Shown here piece by piece: positions 20,272 through 57,329 of a DNA stretch of 59,916 nt. Positions within the stretch are counted from its first letter, which is position 1. Every line of letters starts with the position of its first letter. Under the pieces are notes generated by a model, which searched no databases, had not been told where the DNA came from, and worked only from the letters and a program-made list of their open reading frames with translations. Both the position numbers and the translations under genes were made by a program. This DNA comes from a virus: the UHGV virus genome UHGV-0126570. One strand, written 5' to 3'.

Positions 20272-20281
20272 TGTTAGAAAA
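20272..20281 (+). promoter_or_regulatory. Operator-like half-site TGTTAGAAAA
   Basis: Exact copy of the recurrent 10-mer, ~140 bp upstream of the VRR-NUC start. Confidence 0.4.
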
Positions 20282-20418
20282 TAGCGAGGAAAAGAAGGCG
20301 TCGCAGTGAATATTCTGAAACGTCCCCACATGCCGTAGCTCTCAGAGAACTGGAGAAAAACCCAGATCTAATCAAAAGGAACCATGAGCATTACGAGCAG
20401 GTACGCGTCCTGGATTGG

Positions 20419-20727
20419 TTGTATCGCAATATGCGCTATGTGTATGAGCATACACACGCCACTCCAAACGGCGGTCTGCGAGGCATAAGGACGGCAATAA
20501 AAATGGTGGCAGAGGGCCAAAAGAAGGGATATCCCGATCTTTCTATAGACCTTGCTTGTGGGGGATACCACGGAATGCGCATTGAGATGAAACATGGGAG
20601 AAATCGCCTGACTCCCGAACAACTCGTCTGGATGACTCGCCTCACCGAAGCAGGTTACTACTGCTTTGAGGCGCGCAGTGCCGCTGAAGCCATAAAAGCT
20701 ATCACGGAATATGTTTGTCTTGATTAA
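20419..20727 (+). CDS. VRR-NUC domain nuclease (PD-(D/E)xK fold)
   Basis: GYPDLSIDLA...RIEMKHGRNRLTPEQLVWM matches the VRR-NUC pattern (GxPDL...E.K...S.EQ..W). Start is TTG; the first helix of the domain is encoded upstream of any canonical start, so the start is uncertain. Confidence 0.55.
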   Translation: MYRNMRYVYEHTHATPNGGLRGIRTAIKMVAEGQKKGYPDLSIDLACGGYHGMRIEMKHGRNRLTPEQLVWMTRLTEAGYYCFEARSAAEAIKAITEYVCLD

Positions 20728-20741
20728 ACGGAGAAATCGTT

Positions 20742-20942
20742 TTGCGTTTACTTAACGTGGCTGAACTTATCCCTGCTGGTGCTAACGTTGTTGCTCGCCG
20801 TCGTTCCTGGCAGCAACCATTGTGTGTTGAGTTGTTGAAACACAGCAATGGAACAATAGAGGCTCGGAATATTGTCACTGGTGATAAGGTTCACATTACC
20901 CCGGAAAGTACAGGCGCTGATGATTGGGAGTTTGTACATTGA
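20742..20942 (+). CDS. Hypothetical small protein (66 aa)
   Basis: TTG start with GGAG 8 nt upstream. Confidence 0.35.
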   Translation: MRLLNVAELIPAGANVVARRRSWQQPLCVELLKHSNGTIEARNIVTGDKVHITPESTGADDWEFVH

Positions 20943-21238
20943 GCAAAAAATATCATGTGAACCTGGCGTTTGCCGATGACGCCGGGAGGACGCGGAGCAT
21001 TACGCTCAACACTGCCCGCAAGGTGGTAACAGCGCCTTTAATCCGGGAAGCACTCAGGGAGCTGGAAATGGGGGAGAACTCGACCCTTTTGTCGGTTAGT
21101 TGGTTAGGGAAAATGTCAGAGAAGGAATACGTAGACGGAGTTACTCCCATGACAGCCATGAGGCTGCTTTCATTGCTGCAATGGGCTATCGTACCGGTAT
21201 GCATCGTGTATTTTATCTACCAGGCAATGACACAATAA
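20939..21238 (+). CDS. Small protein with C-terminal transmembrane anchor
   Basis: TTG at 20939 after GGGAG (ORF track 20924); C-terminal LLSLLQWAIVPVCIVYFIY hydrophobic segment; followed by a strong terminator. Confidence 0.4.
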   Translation: MSKKYHVNLAFADDAGRTRSITLNTARKVVTAPLIREALRELEMGENSTLLSVSWLGKMSEKEYVDGVTPMTAMRLLSLLQWAIVPVCIVYFIYQAMTQ

Positions 21239-21245
21239 CCGCTCA

Positions 21246-21313: not shown

Positions 21314-21323
21314 TGTTAGAAAA
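21314..21323 (+). promoter_or_regulatory. Operator-like half-site TGTTAGAAAA
   Basis: Located ~30 bp upstream of the 21354 start codon. Confidence 0.4.
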
Positions 21324-21353
21324 CTAATTTTGCAAAAAACAATGGGAACTGCA

Positions 21354-22562: not shown

Positions 22563-23220
22563 TATGTTAGAAATCTAATTTCATCAAACGAACATATTGA
22601 TTGTGAGAGTAACTTAACTTAGAATTTTCCTTGCTGGTGGAGCGTTGCCACATTTCGCTTGCTGGGCTTGATAGTCACTTATTGGTTGTTGTTCGCCCAC
22701 CAGCAAATAACAAATTAAAGTGTTAGAAAATTACATGCATACAGGGACTCGCTTTGGCACCGAGCAAGCCAAAGTTCAGCAGGTTTAGTGCGTAAAGTGG
22801 TTTCAGAGAGAGCACTTTACGGAGTAAACAACAAGACATGTTGAGCCACGGAAGGTCTTTTTAAGATGTTCATTGATGATGGTCCGGCAGAGAGTAACGG
22901 GACTCGCCGCATCGAATCATCATCAATGCACATCCTCAACATTAAGGAGGCATAGGGATTTTTTTGTGGCGATTACCTTTTGCCCTAAGTCTCCTTAATG
23001 TTGCGGTAATGCACCTATGCGGATGCGGCCTTGCATTGTGTCTTGAAAGAATGGGGTAAGGCCGGGGATATCCCCAGGGGGAGGCACCCCCGCTGCAACG
23101 AACAGCCACAGACGGCAGTCGAGTGATGGAAACGTGCAAAGACTTTAAACCTCGTTACGGCTGGCGTGGCAAACGCGACAACCGAGACAGAGCGGTGACG
23201 GGCGGAGAGAGTGCCGCATC

Positions 23221-23341
23221 AAGAAAGAAGCCGACTTGTGATCCCTTTCTGCGGGCATTTGAAAGTGAATCCAGCTCAGGCAGTCGGCTTCTTTCTTGTG
23301 TGAGATGTAGCGTATTTGCCCATCTTCGGGTGGGCTTTTTT
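23221..23341 (+). ncRNA. Candidate small structured RNA (16-bp stem-loop plus intrinsic terminator)
   Basis: AAGAAAGAAGCCGACT (23221-23236) pairs with AGTCGGCTTCTTTCTT (23282-23297); then GCCCATCTTCGGGTGGGC followed by TTTTTT (23318-23341). The overlapping 85-codon ORF (23123-23380) runs through both hairpins and is probably not coding. Confidence 0.3.
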
Positions 23342-23801
23342 AGGGTTTTCGTCATGGTTAGCGACTTTGCGGCGGTTTAGAACCCGACCATTAAAGTAAA
23401 TGCAAACGATGATCTGATGATGGTAGCGGCCTAAGAAGCCTGACGCCACGGGGTATGAGTCGTCCCCCGTCAAAAAATCGACCGCAGAGTGTCCCCGTCT
23501 GTGTATTAGGGAACGGGGAGGCATAACAGGCAAGGGCGCTGGTGTGATTAACCAGATGAATGAGAAGGGTCAGGTCTTTCTGGTCAGCGCCCTTACCTGT
23601 TACGTCCCTCCCGCGTAACAGCCATTGATTAATGGCTTTCTGGGATAACATCCTACTACGGGTATATCCCGTCATGCTGAAGGCGCTAATCACGCTGGAA
23701 GCCAGGGTTGTGCATCCCCTGTTACCGAATTGCAGCCAGGGCGCGGTGCGCCGAAAAGCATACGGAGGTGGAAGCCCTCGCCGGAGACGTAACCGGCAAG
23801 T

Positions 23802-23878
23802 GATGGTGTAGCTCAGTAGGATAGAGCAGCAGCCTTCTAAGCTGTCGGTCGGTGGTTCGAATCCACCCACCATCGCCA
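23802..23878 (+). tRNA. tRNA-Arg (anticodon UCU; decodes rare AGA)
   Basis: Manual cloverleaf: acceptor GATGGTG/CACCATC, D-arm GCTC-AGTAGGATA-GAGC, anticodon stem GCAGC/GCTGT with loop CTTCTAA, T-arm GGTGG-TTCGAAT-CCACC, encoded CCA. Confidence 0.8.
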
Positions 23879-23880
23879 AT

Positions 23881-23956
23881 GCCGGTTTAGCTCAGTTGGT
23901 AGAGCGCCTGCCTTGTAAGCAGGATGTCAGCGGTTCGAGTCCGTTAACCGGCACCA
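23881..23956 (+). tRNA. tRNA-Thr (anticodon UGU)
   Basis: Acceptor GCCGGTT/AACCGGC, D-arm GCTC-AGTTGGTA-GAGC, anticodon stem CCTGC/GCAGG with loop CTTGTAA, T-loop TTCGAGT, encoded CCA. Confidence 0.8.
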
Positions 23957-23964
23957 ACACAACA

Positions 23965-24039
23965 GGTAAGGGTATTTTGCGACGTCGGAGATCGCCGTGC
24001 TTGGCAGAGGGTTCGAATCCCTACGAAGTACCCTTACCG
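23965..24039 (+). ncRNA. Non-canonical tRNA-like element (acceptor-like stem plus T-loop, no canonical D/anticodon arms)
   Basis: GGTAAGG(G)...GGGTTCGAATCCC...CCCTTACC: a 7-8 bp terminal helix and a perfect T-loop consensus, but the interior cannot be folded into a cloverleaf. Either a tRNA pseudogene or an RNase P-type processed regulatory RNA. Confidence 0.3.
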
Positions 24040-24421
24040 TTGTGATGAAGTGCAGCTCTTTGAAGCAACCAGAAGATAAGCATCTGGCTTCACAACATAA
24101 ACCGCAGGAACGACCAATAAACGGTAGTCCGTATGGAGAATACCCCGTTGAGGAAGAGGCCTGGCCGGAACCGTAACCGGCACTACAACGTTGAGAACAC
24201 TGACGTAACGGGGTCATATCCCAATCTACGAATAAATGTTGCGTTGCAGCGTGACAACCAGTGTTCTCAACGTTGTGGTGGATTCGCAGACTGATGCGAT
24301 AGCTTTCTTGGATGTTAGGGAAATGCGGCCGCAAACCTTCCCTTTCGCGAGCGGTGATCGTCCGTAGTCCTAATTGGCTGCACCGTATGCCGGAGATTCA
24401 GTACCGGCCACCACAACGGCC

Positions 24422-24508
24422 GGAGAGTAGGGAGCATGGTGCTCAAGCGGTCTTGAAAACCGTCCCATTGCGCAAGCGATGATGGTTCGATTCCATTACT
24501 CTCCGCCA
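24422..24508 (+). tRNA. Probable type II tRNA, tRNA-Ser (anticodon UGA)-like
   Basis: Acceptor GGAGAGT/ACTCTCC, anticodon arm GCGGT-CTTGAAA-ACCGT (close to E. coli serT), 17-nt variable region, T-arm GATGG-TTCGATT-CCATT, encoded CCA. D-arm and variable arm are atypical. Confidence 0.55.
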
Positions 24509-24775
24509 GCGCAACGTTAAGAGTATTTGGCTAATTAAGCGAATGCCGGAAGCAGAACCGGATCAACAAATGCGTACAGGCGTCATCGCCGCCCAGCCAG
24601 CCAAGTGCTCTTACCATTGCGGTGAATGCGGCTAAGCGCACGCGGAACAGTTAAAACAATCCTCCTTAGTGGTTAAGTCAAACATCCCGGCGTTAATTGT
24701 TAACTGGTTAACGTCACCTGGAGGCACCAGGCACCGCAACCTAATAAATACGTCATGTTTATTGAGGGATAACCA

Positions 24776-25210
24776 ATGTTCGGTAAATTTTTCGGTAAGA
24801 AAGTCGCTTCAGCAAAAGTAGAGCTGAAAAGGGTTGAGAATCGCGATCTGATGGAGGCCATTATCGGTGGCTGTTTGTTGGTGTCTGCCGCAGATGGTGA
24901 AATCGAAAAGGAAGAAACAGCGAAACTTGATCAGCTTGTCCGCTCTAATCCTCGCTTAAGTCATTTTGGCAACGAAATTACCGCAACAATCACCCGTTTT
25001 ACTGAGCAACTGGAAGCTGGTTTCCGTGTTGGTCGCATGAATATCCTTCGCGAAATTGAAGATATCAAAAATGATCCAAAAGAAGCGGAAGAAGTATTCG
25101 TTAACATGCTGACGATTGCAGAAGCGGACGGTGAAATCGAGCCAGCAGAACACAAAGTACTGGAAGAAGTAGGCCGTCGTTTGGGCCTTCGTGTGGAAGA
25201 TTATCTGTAA
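24776..25210 (+). CDS. TerB-like domain protein (tellurite-resistance TerB / TciA-like)
   Basis: 144 aa with the paired acidic helices typical of the TerB fold (...LLVSAADGEIEKEE...LTIAEADGEIEPAEHKVLEEV); GAGGG RBS. Adjacent to the tRNA-Ile2 gene, as tciA is adjacent to trnI in P1. Confidence 0.65.
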   Translation: MFGKFFGKKVASAKVELKRVENRDLMEAIIGGCLLVSAADGEIEKEETAKLDQLVRSNPRLSHFGNEITATITRFTEQLEAGFRVGRMNILREIEDIKNDPKEAEEVFVNMLTIAEADGEIEPAEHKVLEEVGRRLGLRVEDYL

Positions 25211-25374
25211 TGATTGGCAAGGCGCGTATTGCGTGCGCCATTGGTTTTCTCGTTTTGTCCGTGCTGGTGGATTTCACCAGCAAAGTGATGTCGGTGTTGG
25301 CTGATGGGGCACTGGTTTCAGTAGCTGTGGTATTGCTATTGCCGATTATTAAAGCTGCGTTCAGGAACTCATGA
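25210..25374 (+). CDS. Small membrane protein (54 aa), not in ORF track
   Basis: Start overlaps the upstream stop (TAATG); MIGKARIACAIGFLVLSVLVDF...VAVVLLLPII has two hydrophobic helices. Confidence 0.4.
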   Translation: MIGKARIACAIGFLVLSVLVDFTSKVMSVLADGALVSVAVVLLLPIIKAAFRNS

Positions 25375-25484
25375 TGGATTTTTGGACGTATATTGATAAG
25401 AACCCTGGATGGTCTTTGCTATTTCTTCTTGTGATCGTATACGGAGTAGAACAAGTAGCGAAGAATCTCAGGCGTCGAAAATAA
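25371..25484 (+). CDS. Small membrane protein (37 aa), not in ORF track
   Basis: ATGA overlap with the previous ORF; MMDFWTYIDKNPGWSLLFLLVIVYGV...RRRK has a single TM and basic tail. Confidence 0.35.
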   Translation: MMDFWTYIDKNPGWSLLFLLVIVYGVEQVAKNLRRRK

Positions 25485-25493
25485 AAACTAATT

Positions 25494-25569
25494 GGCCCCT
25501 TAGCTCAGTGGTTAGAGCTGGCGACTCATAATCGCACGGTCACCGGTTCAAGTCCGGTAGGGGCCACCA
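25494..25569 (+). tRNA. tRNA-Ile2 (anticodon CAU, lysidine-type; decodes rare AUA)
   Basis: GGCCCCTTAGCTCAGTGGTTAGAGC...CTCATAA...GGTTCAAGTCC...AGGGGCCACCA; acceptor and D-arm essentially identical to E. coli ileX. Cannot be formally distinguished from elongator Met by sequence alone. Confidence 0.75.
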
Positions 25570-26022: not shown

Positions 26023-26598
26023 ATGTTAACGGCGAACGATAACGCGTATGCAGAAGCAGATCTCATATTGAGTGACTTCATCGGTCAGCGGGAACGCTGG
26101 ACACAAAAGCGAGAGGAACTTTATGCCTCGTTAGTTCGCAAAGGTGTCAACATTGAAACCGCTCAAAGCGGCGATATGACGGTAGTCAGTGTTGGATTAC
26201 ATGGTGTGAGCGTGTCCGCAGCCAATCATGAGCCATACGTAGCGTTATCCGAGTCGATGGCAAGGCTAATTAAGTTTCTGAAGCAAACAGAAGCCAATAA
26301 TGTTTTCATCGCCAAAAAGAACATCAATTTTTCTGCCGCCATGTTCTGGATGATGAAGGGGCTGGATGCCCGCCGGGCATCATGGCCTAAAGGGAGCTAT
26401 TTATCGATGTTCCGTGGCAGCATTGGCAGCAAAGAAAAGCTCTTCGAATTCTTGCCGGAAGAGGCATTCGATATTGTGGAAGGGTGCGATGTGATGGTTA
26501 TGCCTCGCCTGGTAATGATGAATGGGGATTTACAGGCGCAGACAGACTGGTTCGCAACTGGCGTGGATATTATCGCAACTGACTGGGAGGCATTCTGA
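26023..26598 (+). CDS. Fusion protein with C-terminal DUF2829-like (Tad2-like) domain
   Basis: C-terminal AAMFWMMKGLDARRASWPKGSYLSMF ... MPRLVMMNGDLQAQTDWFATGVDIIATDWEAF follows the DUF2829 signature as recalled from memory; N-terminal ~100 aa unassigned. Confidence 0.4.
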   Translation: MLTANDNAYAEADLILSDFIGQRERWTQKREELYASLVRKGVNIETAQSGDMTVVSVGLHGVSVSAANHEPYVALSESMARLIKFLKQTEANNVFIAKKNINFSAAMFWMMKGLDARRASWPKGSYLSMFRGSIGSKEKLFEFLPEEAFDIVEGCDVMVMPRLVMMNGDLQAQTDWFATGVDIIATDWEAF

Positions 26599-26990: not shown

Positions 26991-27020
26991 TGTTAGATGA
27001 ATGGAATTAATTTTCTAATA
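26991..27020. promoter_or_regulatory. Palindromic operator-like element TGTTAGA-N16-TCTAATA
   Basis: Inverted heptamers with 16-bp spacing, upstream of the 27099/pacA operon; same architecture as the sites at 42979, 46407 and 57293. Confidence 0.5.
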
Positions 27021-27098
27021 TAACCAACTTTTTGCCAGTCTATACAGAAATAACATTCTCATTATCATCCCCTCGGTCATTTCCTGCCCGGGGGATTA

Positions 27099-30431: not shown

Positions 30432-31469
30432 TTACCAGAGTTTAGCGGCGTGCTGTGTTTGGGAGAAAGTGAACCCGTAACGTTCTTCTATGGTTTTACC
30501 GTATCTTTTCCGCGCGTCTGTCAGTTTTATGCCTGTCAGGTCATCTCCGGATGTCATCATTACGTCTAACAACTCCAGATCCATTTTATTCAGTCTCGCC
30601 ATCGCTTCGCGTGCTGTCTGTATTTTACGCTCAATGATATGGCGAATAGCCGGATCGGCTTCCTCAAGCATTTTGGCTGATTTGTTCTTTAAGCTCTCAT
30701 TGCGGATGTCGATGTTTCGCAAGATGTATGACTTCGCAACATAGCTTGGTTGGTGTTTCTCCAGATCGCGAACGCGATAGAGACTAAAGTCACCAAGCAG
30801 GCCGCAAGGTATCGACTCAACCCCAGAATAAATAGTAATGCTGCGACGTTCGCCGACATTATTAACAACGGGCACTGTGGTGTTCGGAAGTTTTGCGAAC
30901 ACTAAGGCTCCGTGTGCGCCTACCCTGAATCGTGACAGAGCATTGCTGCCTTCAATGTTTGTTGTAAGCACTACATCTGTGTATCCATCTTTGCGCGCCC
31001 GGTAAACTTCCCCTTCAGGTTCTGATGCGAAAAAACGGCGCTCTTCTTCAAGTGCACCAACAATCTGCGAAAATATCTTGTTTTTCAGGCTTTTCTTTAT
31101 AATTGCATCATATTTTTTGAGCAGATTTTCGCGCGTAAATGAGCGGGTGGTGGTCGCGCTTTGCACAACAATATGCGTGCTTTGATTTGTGTCCTCGATA
31201 ATGAATGGGATCGGAGAATATACAGACTCAACAATGTTAGACGCTTTGCCGTCAGCGTTACGGCACAAGTCAACAAAGGCTTTCCATTCTGTGAGGCACT
31301 TTTCAGCTTCTTCTAGCACATTCTGATCATGTGTTAGTGCAACATGGCGGAATTCCTCGCCGGAATAACTGGTATCATGGAAAACAGAGTTTGCGACCAC
31401 CAGCTCTTTCCACCGTTCAGCGGTTTGCAGGAACCGTTTGTACTCTTTCTCGATCGACTTCTTACTCAT
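30432..31469 (-). CDS. Hypothetical protein (345 aa); candidate immunity-region regulator
   Basis: Only gene between pacB and the lox-like site, divergent from cre; three operator-like motifs lie in its upstream region (31488-31497, 31572-31582, 31666-31674). Repressor role is positional inference only. Confidence 0.3.
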   Translation of the reverse strand: MSKKSIEKEYKRFLQTAERWKELVVANSVFHDTSYSGEEFRHVALTHDQNVLEEAEKCLTEWKAFVDLCRNADGKASNIVESVYSPIPFIIEDTNQSTHIVVQSATTTRSFTRENLLKKYDAIIKKSLKNKIFSQIVGALEEERRFFASEPEGEVYRARKDGYTDVVLTTNIEGSNALSRFRVGAHGALVFAKLPNTTVPVVNNVGERRSITIYSGVESIPCGLLGDFSLYRVRDLEKHQPSYVAKSYILRNIDIRNESLKNKSAKMLEEADPAIRHIIERKIQTAREAMARLNKMDLELLDVMMTSGDDLTGIKLTDARKRYGKTIEERYGFTFSQTQHAAKLW

Positions 31470-31487
31470 TATTCCTACTCGATTTAG

Positions 31488-31497
31488 TTTTCTAACA
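31488..31497 (-). promoter_or_regulatory. Operator-like half-site (TGTTAGAAAA on minus strand)
   Basis: About 20 bp upstream of the 31469 start codon of the minus-strand gene. Confidence 0.4.
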
Positions 31498-31669
31498 TAA
31501 AATTACTATGACAAATCTATGCCGAATAACAGGGTGAGTAAAGGATCAAGATGCATTTTTTTATCATCCAATTTAGAAAATTCTGCTTAAAAACTGCCAG
31601 GCATAACTTAAAGCCCACACCAGCAATGCATTGCCCATCTGCGCGGAAAGGAAAAAAATTCCTAAATTT

Positions 31670-31703
31670 CTAACTTTAGATAATTGGCATTATTTAAAGT
31701 TAG
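31670..31703. other. lox-like recombination site (13-bp inverted arms, 8-bp spacer)
   Basis: CTAACTTTAGATA-ATTGGCAT-TATTTAAAGTTAG; arms are 12/13 inverted matches and resemble loxP arms (ATAACTTCGTATA); 152 bp upstream of the Cre-like gene. Confidence 0.6.
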
Positions 31704-31854
31704 GCTATAATCATGGGTAGATGATCAGTATTGACATCACTGAAAATACGTGCCTCGAATCAAAGGCTTGAATCTTGAAAATTAACTTATAGCTACCCTG
31801 TCATTTTTATATTTTTCGCGTAGCGTCATCTGTATATAGAGGTTAAATAGTTTC

Positions 31855-32883: not shown

Positions 32884-32956
32884 ATTAAAATTCTAACACA
32901 TCTTTTTAGATTAACGCCTTTGCTGTAAAGTACCCTCGCCTATTTAGGAGGGTGCT

Positions 32957-34963: not shown

Positions 34964-35731
34964 ATGGAAAGCACTAAAACAATTCAATACCGCTTGCGTA
35001 ATGGCCTGCTGGTGGCTGTTAACGCCGACATGTCACTGCCGTTTGACACGATTGAACGCACTATCATGACGTATCTCGGCTTTAATGAAGAGCTGAATGA
35101 AGAGCATGGCGTAGCTATATGGAGTGATGCAGACAGCGGCGTTCGTCGTTACATCACCGCCAGGGGCAAAGACTACTCTCTGGATGAACTGTTTGCCCTT
35201 GCGCAGTCTTTCGAATGTGTAGCATTAGACCTGTTTAATGATCCTGCTATAGCGCAACGACTTATACGCGAGCTTGGGCTATCCGTTACACCAATTATAT
35301 TTAAAAATGGCAGCCTGACTGGCACATGGCGCGTAGAACGCATCTCAAACTACCTTCCATATAACCGACAGTTAAATGGAGTAATCTCCGGCGTTAATCA
35401 GCCCGTAGCGTGTGAAAATGTAAACCTAGTTGTCGCTGTTTTGGCAACCGCATGTCGTGTTATCGGTTTGGCTAAACAGGCATTTATTCATTTCCCAAAT
35501 GGTGCAGAAGGTAGCGCAGAGATTATCGCGTGTGATTTCGAATTTACCTGGATGCTACGCGAATATCTGGACCAAACAGTATTCCGTGCCGAAGAACTGG
35601 ATATGTATATCACGTCAACGATTCCAGACGATGTGCGAGCTGAAGCAATCGCTACAGCCAGGGCGAAATGCCGTGCGGCGATTGCAGAACAGGCCAAAGA
35701 AGAAGTTAAGGAAGTGGCAGATGGCGACTAA
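34964..35731 (+). CDS. Hypothetical protein (255 aa), partner of the terminase paralog
   Basis: Translationally coupled to the downstream TerL-like gene; no similarity to PacA. Confidence 0.45.
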   Translation: MESTKTIQYRLRNGLLVAVNADMSLPFDTIERTIMTYLGFNEELNEEHGVAIWSDADSGVRRYITARGKDYSLDELFALAQSFECVALDLFNDPAIAQRLIRELGLSVTPIIFKNGSLTGTWRVERISNYLPYNRQLNGVISGVNQPVACENVNLVVAVLATACRVIGLAKQAFIHFPNGAEGSAEIIACDFEFTWMLREYLDQTVFRAEELDMYITSTIPDDVRAEAIATARAKCRAAIAEQAKEEVKEVADGD

Positions 35732-36815
35732 GAGCAATATTTATAAAGATCCGCGCTGGCTGTCGCTGGTGGAGAAATATAAAGACAATTGGGTACTGGC
35801 AGCAAAAGAATTGTTTGATATTGATTTAAGCCACCAGCAACAACAAATTGTTGAAGCTATACAGCCCAATAATGCAAAAGCTACTGTCACCACTCCGTAT
35901 GGGATCGGACGACCGCAAGTGCTTGCTGTTATTAGTACCCTTTATACGATTATGTATCCTGATTCCCGGACAGTAATTGTTTATCCAAAATCAAATGTTT
36001 GCAAAAGAGGAATTGTTGCATATGTGTGGCAATGTTGGGAGGCATTGCTGAAAAAACAACCTTTTATCATTGAGTATTTTAAGGTCGGTGATAGCGGTCT
36101 GATGTTCAATGAATTTTGGGGAATGTGCTTTTGTAACTACCGCCTTAACTATGAAGATAGCATTGCAGGTCACTACGCCGACCATCTTTTATTCATTATT
36201 GTGGATTCCGCACATATCAGCGATCGGGCATACAGCATTGTGTGGGCAAGCATGACTAGTGGTGATTCACGCATATTGCTCACTTCAATTCCGTCACCAG
36301 AGGAAATAGGCTTTTTTTATGATTCACATCATGGACGTGCTTTAGCTGAAGATAATCCGAGTGGTGTATATAAAGCCATTAAGCTGAGCGCGGAGGATTC
36401 ACCATTTATTACCCAAGAATATCTTGATCATTTTGCCGAAAGGTATGGCGGGCGAAATAGTGATGACTATCGTCGTATGATTCTTGGTGAGTTCCCTGGT
36501 ATTAGGGAGGCTGTTCTTGAATCAGATATGCCGAAGACAATGCGCTTTTCGATGCCTGATGGTAGTGAATGGACAATGCCATTACGAGTGATAGCCCGGC
36601 ATCATGCGCAGCACCACGCCAAAAAACATGGCGTCACGACATTAGAATGGTTGAAATCGCACACTATTCCACTCTTCACTGCAGATCACAATGCTATCGT
36701 TGAGTGGGCAAAAACAATTCCGTGGGAGCATGTCGCTGAATATGCTCACATGCTAAAACCGCCGAAAGACAGGCGCGAAATTAGCTGGCTGACAGCCGAA
36801 AAAATCATTGAATGA
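35721..36815 (+). CDS. Terminase large-subunit (PacB) N-domain paralog with degenerate Walker A/B and no nuclease domain
   Basis: Aligns with PacB residues ~10-300 (DPRW..., SHQQQ, FYDSHH, SPF, YGGR, FP), but Walker A is TTPYGIGRP instead of TSGHGTGKS and Walker B LLFIIVDSAH instead of LLLILDEAS; protein ends after ~364 aa. Confidence 0.6.
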   Translation: MATKSNIYKDPRWLSLVEKYKDNWVLAAKELFDIDLSHQQQQIVEAIQPNNAKATVTTPYGIGRPQVLAVISTLYTIMYPDSRTVIVYPKSNVCKRGIVAYVWQCWEALLKKQPFIIEYFKVGDSGLMFNEFWGMCFCNYRLNYEDSIAGHYADHLLFIIVDSAHISDRAYSIVWASMTSGDSRILLTSIPSPEEIGFFYDSHHGRALAEDNPSGVYKAIKLSAEDSPFITQEYLDHFAERYGGRNSDDYRRMILGEFPGIREAVLESDMPKTMRFSMPDGSEWTMPLRVIARHHAQHHAKKHGVTTLEWLKSHTIPLFTADHNAIVEWAKTIPWEHVAEYAHMLKPPKDRREISWLTAEKIIE

Positions 36816-36860
36816 TATCAACAAAAAGCCCGCCTGGTCTGGCGGGCTTCTTTATGCGCC

Positions 36861-37250: not shown

Positions 37251-37373
37251 AGCGTTTTACCTCAATGATACTGTTTATTCATACAGTATACATTGAAAAG
37301 GCATAGTTTGTGAAAGCGGGGTTTGTAGGCGCGCCACGCTGGGGGCTAATCACATTTCTCCCCCATCTTGCCG

Positions 37374-37625: not shown

Positions 37626-37627
37626 AT

Positions 37628-37900: not shown

Positions 37901-37939
37901 AAATCCCCTCTGTGAATTGAGGGGATTTTAGCATGGTGA

Positions 37940-39453: not shown

Positions 39454-39465
39454 AATTACTCCGTG

Positions 39466-41940: not shown

Positions 41941-42936
41941 TCAGTTATTAAACGTGATCACTCCGCGCTCGATGGCGAAGTCGAAAAGCTGGTTAGCGAC
42001 TACATAAAGGCGTATGCCATGTGCTTTTTCCCATGCCCGGACATCGTGTTCTGCGCTTCTGGCGCAGTCATCGCAAAGAGGAACAGCCCAGCGGTTGTGT
42101 TCGTTTAACGAGCGGGCGCGGTACATGAACGGGTGGTTAACTTTGCCACCGCATCCGATGCACGGACGAGAAACCACAAAGCGGAGATAAGCCGGGCTTT
42201 TTCCGAGTAAGGTTTTTGGACGGCGCATATATAGGAGGCCAGAATCCTCATCTACAGACAGGTTGACGATCTGCTCTGCGGTTATGTCCACCAGCTCGCG
42301 CGTACTGCGCTCCCAGGTGATATCTGATTCTTTCAGCGTACCGGTAGGGATTTCAGTTTTTGGCTGACAAAATGCAATGCGCCCGGCTTCATCTGGCAGC
42401 TCATCTTTCAGATTCCGGCGAATGGCCCAAAAAGTGAGTTCAACCATGCTCAGATCGCGTTCTGGCGGTAGTTTTAACTCGCTCGCAGCCCAGTTCATAA
42501 CCCAGTTGGCGCGATTCAGGGATAACTGGTCGTCCAGCTTGCTGTACCCCTTCATCATGTATTCCGCATCATGCTTCCAGCACAGGCGAACGGCAGAACC
42601 GTTATAGAAGTGAGTGGTTAGCTGGTGGCTACAATCGCGCTTATCATGCGCCTGGCAATCGTGAATGTTGGTGCTAACCCAGTGAACGATAGAATCCTCG
42701 CCACCTAACGCATTAAATACGCGCTCACTTTGAAAAAAGGGTGTCAGTGACTGGTTGGCAACCAGGGAATAATTCAGATCCACGACGCCATCAGGGGTGT
42801 TTTCAGCCTGTTCGCGCGGCAATGGGGAGATAAGAAAACGGCGGCCTGCGCCGATGTAATTGCTGGTGGGCTTATCTACAGGAAAGACAGCCACACCAGT
42901 TTCATTTACGACATATGGGGTGATTATTGCACTCAT
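41941..42936 (-). CDS. HNH-motif protein (331 aa)
   Basis: C-terminal CIGCGG...HPF...NEHN...PLCDDC resembles a His-Me finger; a palindromic operator-like site lies directly upstream. Confidence 0.4.
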   Translation of the reverse strand: MSAIITPYVVNETGVAVFPVDKPTSNYIGAGRRFLISPLPREQAENTPDGVVDLNYSLVANQSLTPFFQSERVFNALGGEDSIVHWVSTNIHDCQAHDKRDCSHQLTTHFYNGSAVRLCWKHDAEYMMKGYSKLDDQLSLNRANWVMNWAASELKLPPERDLSMVELTFWAIRRNLKDELPDEAGRIAFCQPKTEIPTGTLKESDITWERSTRELVDITAEQIVNLSVDEDSGLLYMRRPKTLLGKSPAYLRFVVSRPCIGCGGKVNHPFMYRARSLNEHNRWAVPLCDDCARSAEHDVRAWEKAHGIRLYVVANQLFDFAIERGVITFNN

Positions 42937-42978: not shown

Positions 42979-43008
42979 TGTTAGAAAATTAAAATCAACA
43001 ATCTAACA
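42979..43008. promoter_or_regulatory. Palindromic operator-like element TGTTAGA-N16-TCTAACA
   Basis: Between the minus-strand HNH gene start (42936) and the phosphatase gene end. Confidence 0.5.
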
Positions 43009-43040: not shown

Positions 43041-43724
43041 TTACGGTTGCCCTCCCTTCACCTGCATTAGCGTCAGGTTTCCGCAAAATACAGCACCAGT
43101 ATCGATATAATGCTGGTTCCAGAATGCTTTTGGGCTTTTAGCCGGGGTGTGTCCGAAGATAAATCGATCTGCACCTGTAATTTCTTCACCGATGCCATCT
43201 ATCGAATCACTAACACGGTCGCGCGACCAGATGACATTGAAAAGCGGCACAGCCTTACCGAACTGATACTCTCTATCCGGATAGTCAGCATGAGCAATGA
43301 CAATAGTCTCCTGCCCGGTGTTCAGCTCAATGATATGAGGCAATTGCCTTACCAGCTCCACCAGCGCCCTGGCTAAAACTTCCTTATCACTATCCAGCAT
43401 AAAGAACCACTGGCCGCCATTCATTAGCCAGTTATTCACGTTTCCAGCTGGGCTTAACGCATCGATCATCAACCTCTCATGGTTACCCATGACAGCCCGG
43501 AACCAGGGCATCTGCAATAACTCCAGGCATTCGACATTTTCAGTACCGCGATCGATAAGGTCGCCGACTGATATCAGTAAATCCTGCGCCGGGTCAAAAT
43601 CCACACGATGGAGTTCATTCATAAGCAGGGTGTAGCAACCGTGCAAATCACCAACAACCCATATGTTTCTGTATCCTGAACCATCAATACGGCTATATAA
43701 CGCCTGGTCGTTAACGGTGATCAT
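43041..43724 (-). CDS. Ser/Thr protein phosphatase (lambda-PP / calcineurin-like metallophosphatase)
   Basis: GDLHGC, GDLIDRG, GNHE and downstream His motifs in canonical order. Confidence 0.85.
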
Positions 43725-46406: not shown

Positions 46407-46436
46407 TGTTAGAAAATCAATTTTGAATATCTAACA
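46407..46436. promoter_or_regulatory. Palindromic operator-like element TGTTAGA-N16-TCTAACA in a divergent promoter region
   Basis: Between the minus-strand operon start (46239) and the plus-strand Ref-like gene (46485). Confidence 0.5.
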
Positions 46437-46484: not shown

Positions 46485-47063
46485 ATGCAGAAACAGAGTT
46501 ATTGGGAGAAACAGAGACAAAAAGCCATGCAAAAATTGGCTGACCCAGCCTGGCGAGAGGAACAAAGGGCAAAGCGCCTTCAACAAGCTCAACGCCAGCA
46601 GCAGCGAGCGAGAGAAAAAGCCGCATCGCCTGAATATCGGCAAAAGAAAATTGAAAAAGCAAAGCAATATGAACAGCGGAGAAAAGATAAAGCGGTATCC
46701 GCTCCGCCCAAAAAAACACGCACGTCACGCGGCCTGAAGGGCAGATCACTCACAGCCGATGAACGCCGGATACAGACCGCTATCGGTACTCTCCCCTGCA
46801 TTGCCTGCCATATTCACGGGCAACATAGCCCAGTGGTATCCCTGCACCATATCTTCGGGAGAACGGCAGAGAACGCGCATAAATATGTCCTCCCTTTGTG
46901 TAAATGGCACCACCAGTACGCAGCGCCAGCCGAGGTCCGAGAACAATATCCCTGGCTGGTCCCTGTTCATGCTGATGGAAAAATAGGCGGAAAAGCAGAT
47001 TTCATGCGGCACAATGCCGATGAAATGACGTTGTATCAGATGGCGATTGAATTGATAAATTAG
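46485..47063 (+). CDS. Ref-like HNH endonuclease (basic disordered N-terminus plus His-Me finger core)
   Basis: N-terminal ~90 aa highly basic (QKQRQKAMQK...RRKDK); C-terminal LPCIACH..HGQH..SLHHIFGR..H..LPLCKWHH. Architecture matches P1 Ref; the identity is an inference. Confidence 0.4.
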   Translation: MQKQSYWEKQRQKAMQKLADPAWREEQRAKRLQQAQRQQQRAREKAASPEYRQKKIEKAKQYEQRRKDKAVSAPPKKTRTSRGLKGRSLTADERRIQTAIGTLPCIACHIHGQHSPVVSLHHIFGRTAENAHKYVLPLCKWHHQYAAPAEVREQYPWLVPVHADGKIGGKADFMRHNADEMTLYQMAIELIN

Positions 47064-47394
47064 TTTTCTAACATTTTAAGTTGAATTGTAAATTTCTCCG
47101 ATGTACATTCACTACCGATTGGCACACCGGTCAACTTTTTGAGACAAACTGTTTAGTTTTTCGTATTATTGCCGCCGCTATACCTATGGCGGTGCAATAT
47201 AGGTGGCTGAAAAGCCCCCGTTGACTCACGGTGTTCCAGCCTTTATTGCGCCGCCACCAGACCGTGGAACAGTCGATGGCGGCTCCGAAAGCAAGGAGTC
47301 ACTACACTATGAACAGCTACTGTCTTTTCCCATCACTCGTTGTCCGCCACTCACGCGATAATCTGCATTCTTTACTCGCGCTGGGGGTGTCAAA

Positions 47395-47562: not shown

Positions 47563-47667
47563 AATACTGACTGTTGCGCCATGGCATTATCGTGGGGTAT
47601 ATTTCTACGGCACCTTAGAAAAACGGGTGCCGGGATTGGAACCCCGGATAATGTCAAAGGCGACACA

Positions 47668-47689
47668 GACGCCGAAAGCGTCTTTTTTT
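47668..47689 (+). terminator. Rho-independent terminator
   Basis: GACGC-cgaaa-GCGTC followed by TTTTTTT. Confidence 0.7.
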
Positions 47690-47874
47690 GTGTCATGCCA
47701 TCGCACAGCCATACGTAGCGTTTAGCTCAGAGATCAATGGTAGTGCTGGCTGGGCTGCCGAAAGGCAGGCCGGTTCCCTTTGACGCCGGTAGTTCCAACC
47801 CAGTCAGTGCTACCGCCATTGAGATTGGAACCTCACGCGGTAGCTCCTTAACTTAGTCAAAGGAGGCTGCCAAT

Positions 47875-49090: not shown

Positions 49091-49402
49091 ATGAAAAAAA
49101 TAGATTTCACTTATTCTGCCGCCACACTTGAGCGGCGCTTCACCCTCATTAGAGAGTTGGAACTGTCAAAAGTCTGGTATCAAATCCTACTGGATGAAGA
49201 GTTTTCACTGATGGTTATAGCAGAAAAATTGGCTATGCCGAATGACCGGCACAAGGTCATAGCCAGCCTCGATCTGGTGACAAACAGATACTGGGAAACA
49301 GAGGAACTACATGAGGCGGGAGTAATTCGTGACCTGATGGAGAATTCCGTTCCCCGCCGCTATCGTGCAGGAAACGGCATCTCCGTGGTTAAAGGTGTTT
49401 AA
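49091..49402 (+). CDS. Hypothetical protein (103 aa)
   Basis: ORF only. Confidence 0.35.
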   Translation: MKKIDFTYSAATLERRFTLIRELELSKVWYQILLDEEFSLMVIAEKLAMPNDRHKVIASLDLVTNRYWETEELHEAGVIRDLMENSVPRRYRAGNGISVVKGV

Positions 49403-49791
49403 AGCTCACCTGCGCGCTGTTTTTCAAGCACAGATTTAACATTTGGCGCTTTCCCTTTAAAAGAATGGAAAGTGCCACATTTTTCTGTTTTAACCTCGCG
49501 CAGAGCTTCGCCATCGGCGTTCTGCCATTGATGGGATAATGTCATATCACCGCGAGAAGGAACATCCAGCGAGTACAGCGTGTAAGTTCCCCCCATCTCC
49601 GCATACTCCTGGAACACATAGCTCATTACGTCAGATTCAGTTTTTCGGTGTGCGTTATCAACCTTATTCCCATTCAGAAATATGGCATCTGGATAGATTT
49701 TTATATCAAACCGACCGCACTTAACTTGTAAATTTCCGGCGCTCGCGATCAAAGGGAAAGACGCCAGTAAAGCAATAGCCAATCTTTTCAA
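49399..49791 (-). CDS. Secreted protein (130 aa)
   Basis: Signal peptide MKRLAIALLASFPLIASA. Confidence 0.45.
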   Translation of the reverse strand: MKRLAIALLASFPLIASAGNLQVKCGRFDIKIYPDAIFLNGNKVDNAHRKTESDVMSYVFQEYAEMGGTYTLYSLDVPSRGDMTLSHQWQNADGEALREVKTEKCGTFHSFKGKAPNVKSVLEKQRAGEL

Positions 49792-49811
49792 TTCTGCCTC
49801 CGCTGCGTAAC

Positions 49812-50435
49812 TTATTGCCCGTATTTTTTACACCATTGCTCTGCCATTTGTTTGGCTAAAGGCCCGGCTACTGCACTGTATTCTGCTGTTTTACTTTGCA
49901 CACATGAAGCAGATGGTTTTTTATTTCGCTGCTCGGTTAGTTTGCGCTCATAAGCCATCATGCTATCGAACCCAGCAATATCACTTTGGCGAAGCATTCC
50001 CTTTTTAACCAAAAATTGCTGCCCCTCGGGCACCAACGCAAGCATAAAAAGTGGTTGTAATAACTCACCTAATCCTTGCTGGCGATACACTTCGAATTGC
50101 TGCCATCCCTGACTTAATCTGGAAAGAGTATCTTTGGTTGAATAACCTGTTTTTGTTATAGCTTTGTCCGTCAGATATGCTGTATATGCAAAAACGCAAA
50201 AGTCAGTTTTACCAATAAACTGAGTTCCAACAGGCCGTAATGGAATGCCCTCTCTCTTGCAAAAGTCCATAATTGCCGCTTGTGAATGATCCCCACCAGC
50301 GTTATTCATAACCTGCTGCCCTGCCCTGAATTGTGCAGGTAACGCAGTTGCATTGGCTGTATTAACAGATACGCATCCCAACATAGCCGCGAGCGCGGTC
50401 CCTAAAACCCTTAACTTCACTACACCGTCCTTCAT
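49812..50435 (-). CDS. Exported protein (207 aa), possible lipoprotein
   Basis: N-terminal signal sequence with LGC motif. Confidence 0.45.
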   Translation of the reverse strand: MKDGVVKLRVLGTALAAMLGCVSVNTANATALPAQFRAGQQVMNNAGGDHSQAAIMDFCKREGIPLRPVGTQFIGKTDFCVFAYTAYLTDKAITKTGYSTKDTLSRLSQGWQQFEVYRQQGLGELLQPLFMLALVPEGQQFLVKKGMLRQSDIAGFDSMMAYERKLTEQRNKKPSASCVQSKTAEYSAVAGPLAKQMAEQWCKKYGQ

Positions 50436-50651
50436 GTAAACAAAATGAAGTTTTATGTTACAAAAACAATCAACTACATCAACATGATTTAGGCCAAATT
50501 TCGGTCAAAAAATAAAATCCACAAAAAGTGGTTGACACTATTTTGGAAATCACAAACTGCACATAATCCATCGCGCTAACGGCTCCCGTTGAAGGTTCTT
50601 TTGACGATTAACTTTCAGCCGAAGCGCGGTAGGGAGTCATAACGCCAAAGC

Positions 50652-51357: not shown

Positions 51358-51685
51358 TCACATTAGTAGCTTTGTTAACTCCCTCAATACCAGGTAGAAG
51401 AGTAACAAAAATATTGACGCCAGTATTTGAGTGGACAATGAAGCGTTCATAAACAGATCAATTAGCATTAATAATTCGAAGATAACATCCATGTCATTCA
51501 CTCCGTTTAATTTTTAATCTAATGCCAGCAAATGAAGCTGGCCCCCGCATAAAGATTAATGAAAGTCACTTGTCACCAGTGAGGGGATTTATGAACCACA
51601 TCCCCCTGAACTGGTGGCCAGTCTGTTTCTCGCATTTCACACCCTGCATACAGTTTCCACCAGGTTATGACTGAGAGGCTTTGTT

Positions 51686-54017: not shown

Positions 54018-54086
54018 ATGAATTGAAATCACAATCTCCAGACAATGCACCCTCGATACCTGATAAATCGACCTTTGAGGATGCTT

Positions 54087-54878: not shown

Positions 54879-55642
54879 CTTCAAATAAAACCCTCCTGGC
54901 GCGAACAGGTGAATGGCAAACCTCACGCACAGGAAAATTCCAGACCACGGGCTTTGAAAACGTGGATAACGCGTTTGCGACGCTAATCAGCAACATTTTT
55001 TCTGATATCTTACTTGTGGCCCCCGCGCCGGAAGAAAAACGCTTTGCGTCATTCCTGAATCGTCCACCAGCAGAGCGTGTCTATGTGGCCCGTTTCGACA
55101 ATGCGATCGAGTTTCTTAAAGCAGTTCGTCGCGCAAATGCCGGGCAAGGGAGAAAACCTGAAAACCAGAACATTAACCGGGATGCTCTCCCCCTGGTCAA
55201 TATCTCACGCACTATGGATATCAATTATATCAACGATGATCAGCAGATTGACCGCAAAAAAGTAGCCAGTTTTTGCGAACCGGATACCGGAATGCCTTTA
55301 GCAGAACTGGAATACACCCAGGCCATTCTGACGTATGACGTTACGTTAATGGCAACTGATAAAGCGACCATGAGTCTGATGTGTAATTCGCTGGGCGCAC
55401 GGCTTCGCCTGATGACAGGTACACAATTTGAAGCAACCACTCACCTTGTTCGTGTCCCGGTCCCGCTGATTTGCTCGATACAGGATGCCAAAGAAGTCGG
55501 CTTTACGGATGTTTCAGCACCAATTGGAGAAGAGCGTATTTATGCCACACAAGCGCCGATAAGTGTGATTGCAGACGTGATCACAGCATGGGAGTTGGAC
55601 GCAAAACGTATTATTACCGAAACCTCGATATCTATGGGGTGA
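54875..55642 (+). CDS. Hypothetical protein (255 aa), possibly tail/baseplate-associated
   Basis: ATGA-coupled member of the operon that contains a baseplate-spike-like gene. Confidence 0.35.
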   Translation: MTSNKTLLARTGEWQTSRTGKFQTTGFENVDNAFATLISNIFSDILLVAPAPEEKRFASFLNRPPAERVYVARFDNAIEFLKAVRRANAGQGRKPENQNINRDALPLVNISRTMDINYINDDQQIDRKKVASFCEPDTGMPLAELEYTQAILTYDVTLMATDKATMSLMCNSLGARLRLMTGTQFEATTHLVRVPVPLICSIQDAKEVGFTDVSAPIGEERIYATQAPISVIADVITAWELDAKRIITETSISMG

Positions 55643-55645
55643 TAA

Positions 55646-56626
55646 GTGGCCCAGGAGTTACAACAATATTTTCTACAGTCAGTGCTCATTAACGATAACA
55701 AAGTGCCACGAGACTGGATTTTTACCGCAGTATATGTAGAAAAAACCAGCCTCAAAGCCCCTTTGCTAAAACTGGAAATTCATGACGCTACCGGCACCGT
55801 AATTGATGACTGGAAAGCCAAATACGGTGCATCGCTGGTGGCTGAAATGGGCGATCCAAACGGTAATGCAGGCACTTTTAAAACAGATTTCTTTGTTACG
55901 TCTGCAATGCTGGCTGGTGATGTTGTTACCGTTATTGCTGTCAGTGAAGACGTGCGCAGGTTTAAGATCCCCTCCCCGCGCACAAATTTACATACCAACA
56001 AAACACCAGACGCTATATTCAAGGCATATTCCGGCAAGCTTAAAATTACCAGCAGCGTGCTAAAACGCGCAGTTACATATCATCTGAATGCCGGTGACAA
56101 ACCGTCAAAAATGCTCTCGCAGATAGCGCGAGACAAAGGTGCATTATGTTGGGTATGCCGTGGGGAATTTAACTTTTACACCCTGGCTGATCTGATGAAG
56201 CAAACGCCATCATTTACCTACGAGGGGAATAACCCTAAAGCAGAATACACTTTGTCCAAAATGCGCCTACTCCAACAGGAACATGCGACAACAGCAAAGA
56301 ATCAATATCGTTTTGTTGGGTATTCCATGACCGATGGCTACGTCGAATATGGCGATAGCTCACTCCCAGTGCGTTATATATCCGACTCTGATATGGAAAC
56401 TCTTCGCAATATGCAGCTGTCTCTCGTCCCCAAAATGGATATAGAAGTCGCAGGCAATCCGGATATAAAACCGGGAATGGTAATAGAGATTATCGTATAC
56501 CGCTATGACCAGGAAAACCGCATTGATGAATCAATGCCCCGCAAGCTGATAGTAAAAAATGTTGCGCACTTTGAAGACCGCGTAGGCTACACAACACGAA
56601 TGATATTAGGAGTGCCGAACAAATGA
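55646..56626 (+). CDS. Hypothetical protein (326 aa), possibly baseplate-associated
   Basis: Same operon; ATGA overlap with the downstream spike-like gene. Confidence 0.35.
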   Translation: MAQELQQYFLQSVLINDNKVPRDWIFTAVYVEKTSLKAPLLKLEIHDATGTVIDDWKAKYGASLVAEMGDPNGNAGTFKTDFFVTSAMLAGDVVTVIAVSEDVRRFKIPSPRTNLHTNKTPDAIFKAYSGKLKITSSVLKRAVTYHLNAGDKPSKMLSQIARDKGALCWVCRGEFNFYTLADLMKQTPSFTYEGNNPKAEYTLSKMRLLQQEHATTAKNQYRFVGYSMTDGYVEYGDSSLPVRYISDSDMETLRNMQLSLVPKMDIEVAGNPDIKPGMVIEIIVYRYDQENRIDESMPRKLIVKNVAHFEDRVGYTTRMILGVPNK

Positions 56627-57276
56627 AGCGTAGAGCGCAAATTGTTGGAACTGTGCACCCGGCAGGGCTTATGCGTGCTCAGGTCCGTGTTTTACCAGAC
56701 TGGAATGGCGTTCCTGATGACGATCTACCCTGGGCAGAATACCTGTTACCCATAGGTAACGCGTTTGTACCTACAGTAAAAGGCGACCTGGTATGGGTAG
56801 AGTTTCCTTATCTGGATGTTAATGGTCGAATTGATACCAGACGCCCAATGATAGTTGGCGCAGCTCAGGATGCGCCTGGCGGAGTACCAAACGTCGCGCC
56901 GGAGGCGTCAGGCAATGGTAGCGGCTGGACGCCACCAGAAGTAGACGGAGCGCCTCCCCGCCCGCAATTTTCGGCGACAAAAGATTTCGTGATTCACCGC
57001 AACAATGTGCTCGAAGTGCGAACGGCTGGCGGTGGATATGAAATAGCGAATACGGCAGCAGGCTCAAGGATTGGAATGAATGAATCAGGGCAGATATACA
57101 TCATTGGTCCGGCTGATGTAGTAGTGAATGCGGGAGGGAGTGTTAACGTCAAATCAGCCGATAACATCAGCGTTAATGGCAAAAACATTACTGTGACAGC
57201 CGACGAAAATATTGATTTCAAGGCTGGAGGCACCTTCCAGGCTATCGCAAGCAACTTTGATTTCAAGAAGGGATAG
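56623..57276 (+). CDS. Baseplate spike / gpV-like protein
   Basis: N-terminal OB-fold-like segment (IVGTVHPAGLMRAQVRVLPDWNGVP...GDLVWVEFPYLDVNGRIDTRRPMIVG) followed by a Gly/Asn-rich beta-helix-like repeat. Confidence 0.45.
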   Translation: MKRRAQIVGTVHPAGLMRAQVRVLPDWNGVPDDDLPWAEYLLPIGNAFVPTVKGDLVWVEFPYLDVNGRIDTRRPMIVGAAQDAPGGVPNVAPEASGNGSGWTPPEVDGAPPRPQFSATKDFVIHRNNVLEVRTAGGGYEIANTAAGSRIGMNESGQIYIIGPADVVVNAGGSVNVKSADNISVNGKNITVTADENIDFKAGGTFQAIASNFDFKKG

Positions 57277-57285
57277 AAAACACAT

Positions 57286-57329
57286 CCAATTGTGTTAGAT
57301 AATTGAATAGAATTTTCTAACACAATTGG
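57286..57329. promoter_or_regulatory. Extended palindromic operator-like element CCAATTGTGTTAGA-N16-TCTAACACAATTGG
   Basis: Near-perfect 14-bp inverted arms, 7 bp upstream of the rdgC start codon. Confidence 0.55.

Follow-up and report, generated by a model that had tools for sequence, protein, structure and literature searches.

The immunity repressor C1 of phages P1 and P7 offers the closest described parallel to the system considered here. In P1, C1 binds 22 dispersed asymmetric operators of 17 base pairs (bp) and controls RepL and Lpa (PMC8546580); ref, ban, ssb, dmt and kilA are likewise under its control (PMC4713147). The operators of lambdoid CI and Cro are likewise immunity repressor sites, but they are dyad-symmetric and bound by dimers. 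We analysed a stretch of viral DNA of 59,916 nucleotides, UHGV virus genome UHGV-0126570 (called the window below), in which a motif with the core TGTTAGA recurs at 13 loci, and which carries on the minus strand, at 30432..31469, a C1-like immunity repressor gene encoding 345 amino acids (aa), the putative binder of the motif. From sequence comparison and by analogy with P1, the motif is very probably the operator set of this D6-type C1 repressor. The window resembles P1 and P7 in having a homologous repressor encoded at the same place, a dozen or more operators before repL, c4-icd-ant, lpa, ref, the dmt operon, the tRNA/tciA genes (ban in P1), the pmg genes and c1, and an asymmetric basic site with a TTAGA core that in some cases forms inverted pairs. 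It differs in the operator itself (TGTTAGAAAAYTAAT in the window, ATTGCTCTAATAAATTT in P1, without cross-matches), in having two c4-icd-ant modules, and in that no homologue of Lxc or Coi was detected.

Nucleotide identity to Escherichia phage D6 is 89-97% across most of D6, and by this comparison the window is a D6-like phage-plasmid of the P1 family (a plasmid prophage). Its genes, mapped by homology to D6, lie in the order lydA-lydB-hdf-darA-ddrA-ddrB, prt-pro, repL, c4-icd-ant, darB-ulx and pmgM-pmgR-pmgS, followed by tRNAs-tciA, lpa-pacA-pacB, c1 (minus strand) and rox-dre, and then by ppp, pdcB, ref, a second c4-icd-ant module, mat, genes 26-25, genes 7-24-6-5 and hrdC-dcm-dmt.

A preliminary description of this DNA had reported a recurrent, operator-like 10-mer often arranged as TGTTAGA-N16-TCTAACA palindromes, and both forms proved to be real. 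The exact 10-mer TGTTAGAAAA occurs eight times in the window (at 20272, 21314, 22721, 42979 and 46407 on the plus strand, and at 31488, 47064 and 57313 on the minus strand) against 0.17 expected, and none of 100 shuffled sequences reached eight copies; the palindrome, with one mismatch at most, is present four times (26991, 42979, 46407 and 57293), with none expected. A longer word of about 15 bp, TGTTAGAAAAYTAAT, is common to the flanks of the TGTTAGA/TCTAACA cores, and its degenerate form TRTTAGAAAWYTAA gave 11 matches with at most one mismatch, compared with 0.18 expected. A matrix built from 15 sites gave 17 matches of at least 13 bits, including the variants at 10368 and 27014. All 17 matches are non-coding in a window that is 12.6% non-coding, a test that is partly circular because the matrix was trained on the same sites, and in which site 21314 falls within an open reading frame (ORF) solely through a mechanically chosen TTG start (the conserved PmgS protein starts at 21342). 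The bare 7-mer, used as a non-circular check, was non-coding in 14-15 of 17 copies (binomial P ~1e-10), and the matrix scan and the 7-mer count both bore out the enrichment of the motif in intergenic DNA. The sites are kept at orthologous positions in D6; their flanks and the spacers of the pairs have diverged.

Most of the positions initially listed as sites were recovered. Those at 9168, 22565 and 32891 are not exact copies of the 10-mer but variants with one or two mismatches; the site at 10368 is present, and what had been called a variant is itself a degenerate pair, TATTAGA-N16-TCTAAAT; position 31572 is at best a weak match to TTAGAAAATT. Position 31666 was rejected as an operator: it belongs to the rox recombination site (31671-31702), of which it forms the left arm.

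The product of 30432-31469 is 89.6% identical to C1 of D6. Its identity to P1 C1 in BLASTP was 20% over 239 aa (E 6e-8), the window protein being 62 aa longer, and the profile of its family aligned with P1 C1 over 232 columns in hhalign (98.2% probability, E 5.5e-14). The NCBIfam model phage_rep_C1 (NF041318) was matched at E 3.8e-5, with 23.3 bits for a cut-off of 500, so that the equivalog threshold was not reached. By these alignments the protein is a true but distant homologue of P1 C1, and not an equivalog. A second homology search added three distant members of the C1 family and no others, and the repressor had no helix-turn-helix match in Pfam. The gene is located between pacB and rox/dre (lpa-pacA-pacB-c1-rox-dre), which matches the placement of immC in P1, from pacB to a lox/cre-type module.

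The GenBank record of P1 (AF234172) annotates every C1 operator and late promoter, and the P1 sequences compared here were extracted from it. The window sites match the positions of OrepL, Oc4, O26, OpmgR, OpmgT, Oban, Olpa, Oc1, Oref, Omat and Odmt. In a positional table assigned by hand, 10 of the 12 motif-bearing regions had a P1 operator counterpart, versus 0-2 of 8-10 motif-free regions (Fisher P 0.005 in the conservative count, or 0.0004). The words at these positions do not cross-match: the 17-bp consensus of P1, ATTGCTCTAATAAATTT, had no match in the window with up to three mismatches allowed, a matrix of P1 operators that gave 24 matches in P1 gave none of 12 bits or more in the window, and the window matrix had no strong match in P1. 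The true P1 operators that the window matrix did match weakly were all in reverse orientation. When the two matrices were compared, the window motif scored 4.13 with the reverse complement of the P1 motif and 2.63 with its same strand, the alignment being on the TTAGA core, and the orientation of the sites relative to the genes at repL, at the 3' end of ref and at pmgM agrees with the reverse alignment. The resemblance to the P1 operator had originally been drawn on the same strand (ATTGCTCTAATAAATTT versus ATTGTGTTAGAAAATT); both the matrix scores and the gene-relative orientation disfavour that alignment, and it is probably in the wrong orientation.

The motif changes together with the repressor in related plasmids. 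D6, whose C1 is the closest to that of the window, has TGTTAGAAAA at orthologous places. An Enterobacter plasmid (C1 42.5% identical) has TATTAGAAAA, CGTTAGAAAA or TTTCTAACA upstream of c1 and of lpa, downstream of the recombinase gene and around pmgS. A Citrobacter plasmid (28%) has 16 copies of CCTTAGAAW, 13 of them intergenic, the loci being at ref, downstream of the recombinase gene, upstream of c1 and of pacA, and near pmgS and VRR-NUC. A Pantoea plasmid (27%) has CYTTAGAWTT, including divergent pairs 13 bp apart, which is the P1 geometry, and P1 itself (20%) has ATTAGAGCAAT when read on the reverse strand. Plasmid NZ_CP010154 (L007) is disrupted by insertion sequence elements and was left out of this comparison. 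Across these relatives the loci are kept while the word shifts with C1 divergence, and the TTAGA core is common to the whole family, since the related plasmids and P1 all retain TTAGA in their versions of the motif. The earlier proposal of a C1-like repressor regulon with altered specificity is upheld by the homology of the repressor, by the P1 operator positions and by this co-variation.

Eight of the 13 loci are single asymmetric sites and five are paired. When inverted pairs with spacings of 0-40 bp were scanned, N16 was the sole recurring spacing, and it is kept in D6, as the preliminary description had it for the pairs in the window. Each pair has the full 15-bp word in one arm alone, the other arm being the 7-bp core, and its TTAGA cores are convergent and exactly 21 bp apart (two helical turns). 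In contrast, the pairs of P1 Obanab and of the Pantoea relative are divergent with a distance of 13 bp, and pairs are found at 2 of about 20 operators in P1 versus 5 of 13 loci here. No second arm at N16 was seen by eye beside the single sites, except at 10368. The polarity of the single sites followed no rule relative to transcription (five in the same direction, three opposite), and many sites mark the borders of operons, with a stop codon 1-21 bp before them.

P1 C1 has been reported to bind as a monomer. The dimer-symmetric specificity first suggested for the window repressor is not borne out: most loci are single and asymmetric, each pair has the full site in one arm, P1 too has bivalent operators, and the predicted fold of the window C1 (see below) matches that of a monomeric binder alone. 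By analogy, the pairs would be a D6-lineage variant of the bivalent operators of P1, and they do not amount to evidence for a dimer reading a symmetric site. Some of the window sites are palindromic, as are those of lambdoid CI and Cro, but unlike the latter they are mostly single, asymmetric and scattered over the genome rather than gathered at one switch region, and the repressor, lacking a helix-turn-helix match, is predicted to have another fold.

The alternative originally offered for the motif was a site for a late-promoter activator, namely the element by which Lpa-dependent late promoters would be recognised. The window does encode a member of the Lpa family (Pfam BPP1_LPA, E 6e-55) with 31% identity to the P1 protein, and in P1 late promoters a short box at -22, AAGTGACTT, replaces the -35 element and is followed after a 4-nucleotide gap by the -10 hexamer. 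The late operons of the window and of D6 nevertheless carry another motif upstream, AAATMACA-N7-nAnnnT, with fixed spacing and eight matches in the window against 0.46 expected. On the plus strand it lies at 1172-1192 before lydA, 4956-4976 before ddrB, 6403-6423 before prt, 12453-12473 before darB, 27048-27068 before lpa (between the operator pair and lpa), 50547-50567 before mat and 54026-54046 before gene 7 (gp7), with a variant at 51634-51654 before gene 26; on the minus strand it lies at 12409-12429 before a peptidoglycan hydrolase gene. In P1, LPdar, LPpro, LPlyz, LPmat, LP26 and LPpac occupy parallel positions. Judged from the sequence, AAATMACA followed by a -10 after seven nucleotides is most likely the D6-type Lpa-dependent late promoter, in place of the P1 AAGTGACTT box; Lpa homologue, fixed box-to-(-10) distance and target operons are as in P1, whereas the box and its gap (7 versus 4 nucleotides) differ. 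Such a changed box fits because the window Lpa is just 31% identical to that of P1. A search of the window for P1-type AAGTNACTT boxes gave one match alone, at 51563-51571 on the minus strand (gtgacAAGTGACTT then TTAATC), between mat and gene 26 and directed away from gene 26; it is conserved in D6 at 71096.

The two motifs define two separate regulons. The upstream regions of the late genes in the window lack a TGTTAGA site, except that of lpa, which has both motifs; likewise, Olpa and LPpac are near each other at lpa in P1, and both motifs are also present in D6 between gene 23 and orf52, a region outside the window. The TGTTAGA sites precede lpa and c1 as well as early and immunity genes, in both orientations and with no fixed -10. 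With a separate late motif at hand, the late-promoter reading of TGTTAGA was rejected, and we give it almost no credence.

Two further explanations were weighed against C1 binding. The sites might be recognised by a regulator other than C1, such as a protein of the antirepressor modules, a phage protein of Xre/HigA type or a host nucleoid protein. The sites are A/T-rich, H-NS binds the ref control region of P1 (PMC4713147), and no Lxc or Coi partner was found; yet the loci are positionally equivalent to experimentally defined C1 operators of P1, the word changes with C1 divergence while the loci are kept, and its TTAGA core is shared with the P1 operator. When Escherichia, Enterobacter and Citrobacter plasmids are compared, the site of a host factor should not follow the changes of C1, and we consider a regulator other than C1 to be quite improbable. 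The motif could also be a promoter element, with TTAGAA/TTAGAT of the pair as a -35-like and TAACAN as a -10-like hexamer, 17 bp apart, in which case N16 would simply reflect promoter spacing. Each pair does have TTAGAn and TAAyAn at 17 bp, in both directions, and the halves of P1 Obanab overlie the -35 and -10 of P1ban. The hexamers, however, agree with the consensus at just 3-4 of 6 positions, no partner occurs at that spacing beside any of the eight single sites, and the reading is compatible with operators placed over promoter hexamers rather than a substitute for them. This explanation also leaves the co-variation with C1 unaccounted for, and it is very improbable.

Several observations weigh against the assignment of the motif to C1. 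The table behind the Fisher test was made by hand and the matrix count shares its training sites, as stated above. P1 lacks a counterpart of two loci, those at 32884 (after dre) and 42979 (before the DUF968 gene). The gene next to ulx (19837-20097), at the position of P1 lxc, has no similarity to P1 Lxc, and upstream of c1 there was no Coi-like ORF and none of at least 60 aa, only small ORFs of 20-55 aa; such small, fast-evolving proteins could escape detection in these searches. Several sites directly follow a stop codon or are near a start codon, and are not over a clear -35/-10. Promoter assignments are weak: sigma-70-like matches between 20000 and 33000 numbered 11, versus 15.2 expected from shuffled sequences, and the hexamer scan reached just 8-10 of 12 matches.

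How C1 might read a single asymmetric site is suggested by structure prediction. Tus of Escherichia coli binds an asymmetric site as a monomer and contacts DNA through beta-strands. The first AlphaFold model of the window C1 had a predicted local distance difference test (pLDDT) score of 83.7, and a second model, made for a family member with 27% identity, one of 79.0, both being built from shallow alignments of 12-15 sequences. Both matched Tus alone, the second giving the same four matches as the first and no others, at low template modelling (TM) scores of 0.34-0.43; the C1 sequence profile had no match in the PDB, and no sequence similarity to Tus was found. The invariant arginines of the C1 family (R41, R113, R157, R159 and R182) are in, or at the ends of, predicted beta-strands. 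A Tus-like fold would suit single asymmetric operators and, if confirmed, would give a structural reason why P1-type repressors read asymmetric sites. The sites are not Ter sites, and the role proposed for them is transcriptional repression: GTTGTAAY, which we take to be the Ter core, occurs nine times in the window and at none of the operator-like sites. It may be imagined that C1 repressors of the P1 family are Tus-fold monomeric DNA clamps, whose sites would also act as orientation-dependent roadblocks to RNA polymerase or replication forks; this is unlikely, and the evidence supports the fold resemblance alone. Two sites flank repL, which in P1 contains oriL, and the convergent 21-bp pairs would be two-way locks under the same, equally doubtful, proposal. 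A search of the available literature found no paper linking C1 and Tus.

The 13 loci are as follows, from left to right. A single site at 9163..9177 on the minus strand (site 9171; 23.9 bits) is 21 bp after pro and 174 bp before repL; it is the positional counterpart of P1 OrepL (Op53) and is kept in D6 at 22467. The degenerate pair at 10368..10397 (21.6 bits; D6 21270) is about 106 bp upstream of the c4-a1b1 target/C4 RNA/icd/ant series and corresponds to P1 Oc4 (Op51), itself about 115 bp before a1. The window has two separate immI-like modules, each with a gene for a C4 antisense RNA (Rfam RF01695, 68.8 and 77.1 bits) ahead of an icd-antirepressor pair and each preceded by a TGTTAGA-type site. 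Their RNA elements are at 10474-10526, 10594-10679, 47610-47688 and 47733-47820, all on the plus strand; the first module comprises a c4-a1b1 target element (10474-10526) and the C4 RNA (10594-10679), and the second has an isrK-like RNA.

The weakest site, a single one at 20272..20286 on the plus strand (13.8 bits), is directly before the conserved part of the VRR-NUC/pmgM gene and is the counterpart of P1 O26 (Op82); a promoter-like sequence, TTTACA-16-TATTAT, is near it at 20219-20246. The VRR-NUC/pmgM gene (20233-20727, plus strand) has no canonical start. A TAG within the site is an in-frame stop, the conserved protein sequence (KIARKRRRR...) begins right after it, and the first ATG, GTG or TTG does not occur until 20419. 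In D6, pmgM has one extra A in an A-run, and its annotated N-terminal extension crosses the operator-like site; the start of pmgM may be unusual, or the D6 gene may be mis-annotated.

Three single sites, all on the plus strand, lie around pmgS and before the tRNA genes. The one at 21314..21328 (30.1 bits; D6 10325) follows the pmgR terminator, with the pmgS start 22 bp further on, and corresponds to P1 OpmgRa/b (Op86). That at 22565..22579 (29.0 bits; D6 9076) is 3 bp after the pmgS stop and is an approximate counterpart of P1 OpmgT (Op88). The third, at 22721..22735 (25.9 bits; D6 8920), is upstream of the tRNA-tciA-tciB operon and is the counterpart of P1 Obanab (Op72). Between this last site and the first tRNA gene there is about 1 kb without a convincing ORF (22736-23801). 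In P1 a dicF-like region occupies the matching place, but in this part of the window none of the Rfam families attained its gathering score. The tRNA genes, for Arg(TCT), Thr(TGT), Ser(TGA) and Met(CAT), span 23802-25569.

The pair TGTTAGA-N16-TCTAATA at 26991..27020 is 79 bp upstream of lpa, and the operon that had been labelled after pacA is lpa-pacA-pacB. The pair is the counterpart of P1 Olpa (Op94), and its strong arm is found at equal distance and orientation in D6 (4632) and in the Enterobacter plasmid. Two genes upstream of lpa, the D6 orf6 homologue at 26023-26598 (plus strand) has a Tad2-like (Thoeris anti-defence 2) domain (Pfam E 1.5e-9).

At c1, a single site at 31483..31497 on the minus strand (site 31491; 24.6 bits; D6 199) starts 28 bp upstream of the start codon, a position that would allow autoregulation; it corresponds to P1 Oc1ab (Op99a,b), and the Enterobacter plasmid has TATTAGAAAA 33 bp before its own c1. 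In the c1-rox spacer, 31573..31583 (plus strand, TTAGAAAATTC) is a weak, low-confidence candidate with less than 8 bits by the matrix and a possible counterpart of P1 Oc1c/d. The rox site at 31671-31702, TAACTTTAGATAATTGGCATTATTTAAAGTTA, differs from that of D6 by one base in one arm (G for A), despite which the Dre recombinase is 100% identical to D6 Dre. Of the sigma-70-like promoters in the region, the strongest (TTGGCA-16-TATAAT, 31684-31711) overlaps rox and is directed at dre. After dre, a single site at 32884..32898 on the minus strand (site 32892; 25.5 bits; D6 89948) is 9 bp from the dre stop and 59 bp before orf117; the motif is present at this position in the Enterobacter, Citrobacter and Pantoea plasmids too, in a different version in each.

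The stretches 35700-41600 and 49400-50400, which have no D6 nucleotide match and appear to be accessory-gene replacements, carry no TGTTAGA-type site; among their contents is a 461-aa ORF (35430-36815), which overlaps the end of an isaA-like gene. The pair at 42979..43008 is between ppp (43041-43724, minus strand) and a DUF968/pdcB-like gene (41941-42936, minus strand), which is the gene previously labelled HNH; in D6 its arms are at 80709/80732 with N16 kept. The pair at 46407..46436 is in the control region between the divergent ref (plus) and orf88-DUF4406 (minus) genes and is the counterpart of P1 Oref (Op2a). A single site at 47059..47073 on the minus strand (site 47067; 27.0 bits; D6 75980) is 4 bp after the ref stop, heads the orf86-orf85-isrK-C4-icd-ant module and has the same position and orientation as its P1 counterpart, Omat (Op2b). 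The last pair, at 57293..57322, has an extended dyad (CAATTG-TGTTAGA...TCTAACA-CAATTG), is 14 bp upstream of hrdC(rdgC)-dcm-dmt and corresponds to P1 Odmt (Op68); in D6 (64116/64139) its spacer has diverged and N16 is kept.

If these sites are C1 operators, C1 would in the plasmid-prophage state sit at all 13 loci and keep early and lytic transcription units repressed, its targets being the lytic replication gene repL, the late-activator and packaging genes lpa-pacA-pacB, the two c4-icd-antirepressor modules, ref, hrdC-dcm-dmt, the tRNA-tciA operon, pmgM, pmgS and its own gene. The basic unit would be the single asymmetric site, on which one C1 molecule probably sits, as in P1, and to which five loci add a second inverted TGTTAGA core at 21 bp; these bivalent operators may serve for tighter or two-directional control. 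Inactivation of C1 would allow Lpa to be made, and Lpa would then switch on the late operons through AAATMACA-N7-(-10). The copy of the late motif before lpa would let Lpa boost its own operon, lpa-pacA-pacB.

This logic is already established for P1, and what the window adds is a new operator sequence and pair geometry. The GenBank records of D6 (AY753669 and MF356679) annotate no operators, and a full-text literature search found no title or abstract on the TGTTAGA motif; the D6 genome paper may already list the sites. With the operator word and the late-promoter word in hand, the immunity regulon can be charted, as can the early and the late transcription units. Phage-plasmids of the D6 type are common in Escherichia, Salmonella and Shigella: E. 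coli has plasmids whose c1 gene is identical, Salmonella and Shigella have plasmids with one at least 99% identical, and 155 plasmid records carry the C1 family of the window. Because their operators do not cross-match with those of P1, D6-like phages are predicted to be heteroimmune with P1, and their repressor and operators may provide orthogonal pairs beside the Dre/rox tool that comes from the same region. For the family as a whole, the series TGTTAGA, TATTAGA, CCTTAGA, CYTTAGA and ATTAGAG would constitute a natural experiment in the co-evolution of a repressor with its operators.

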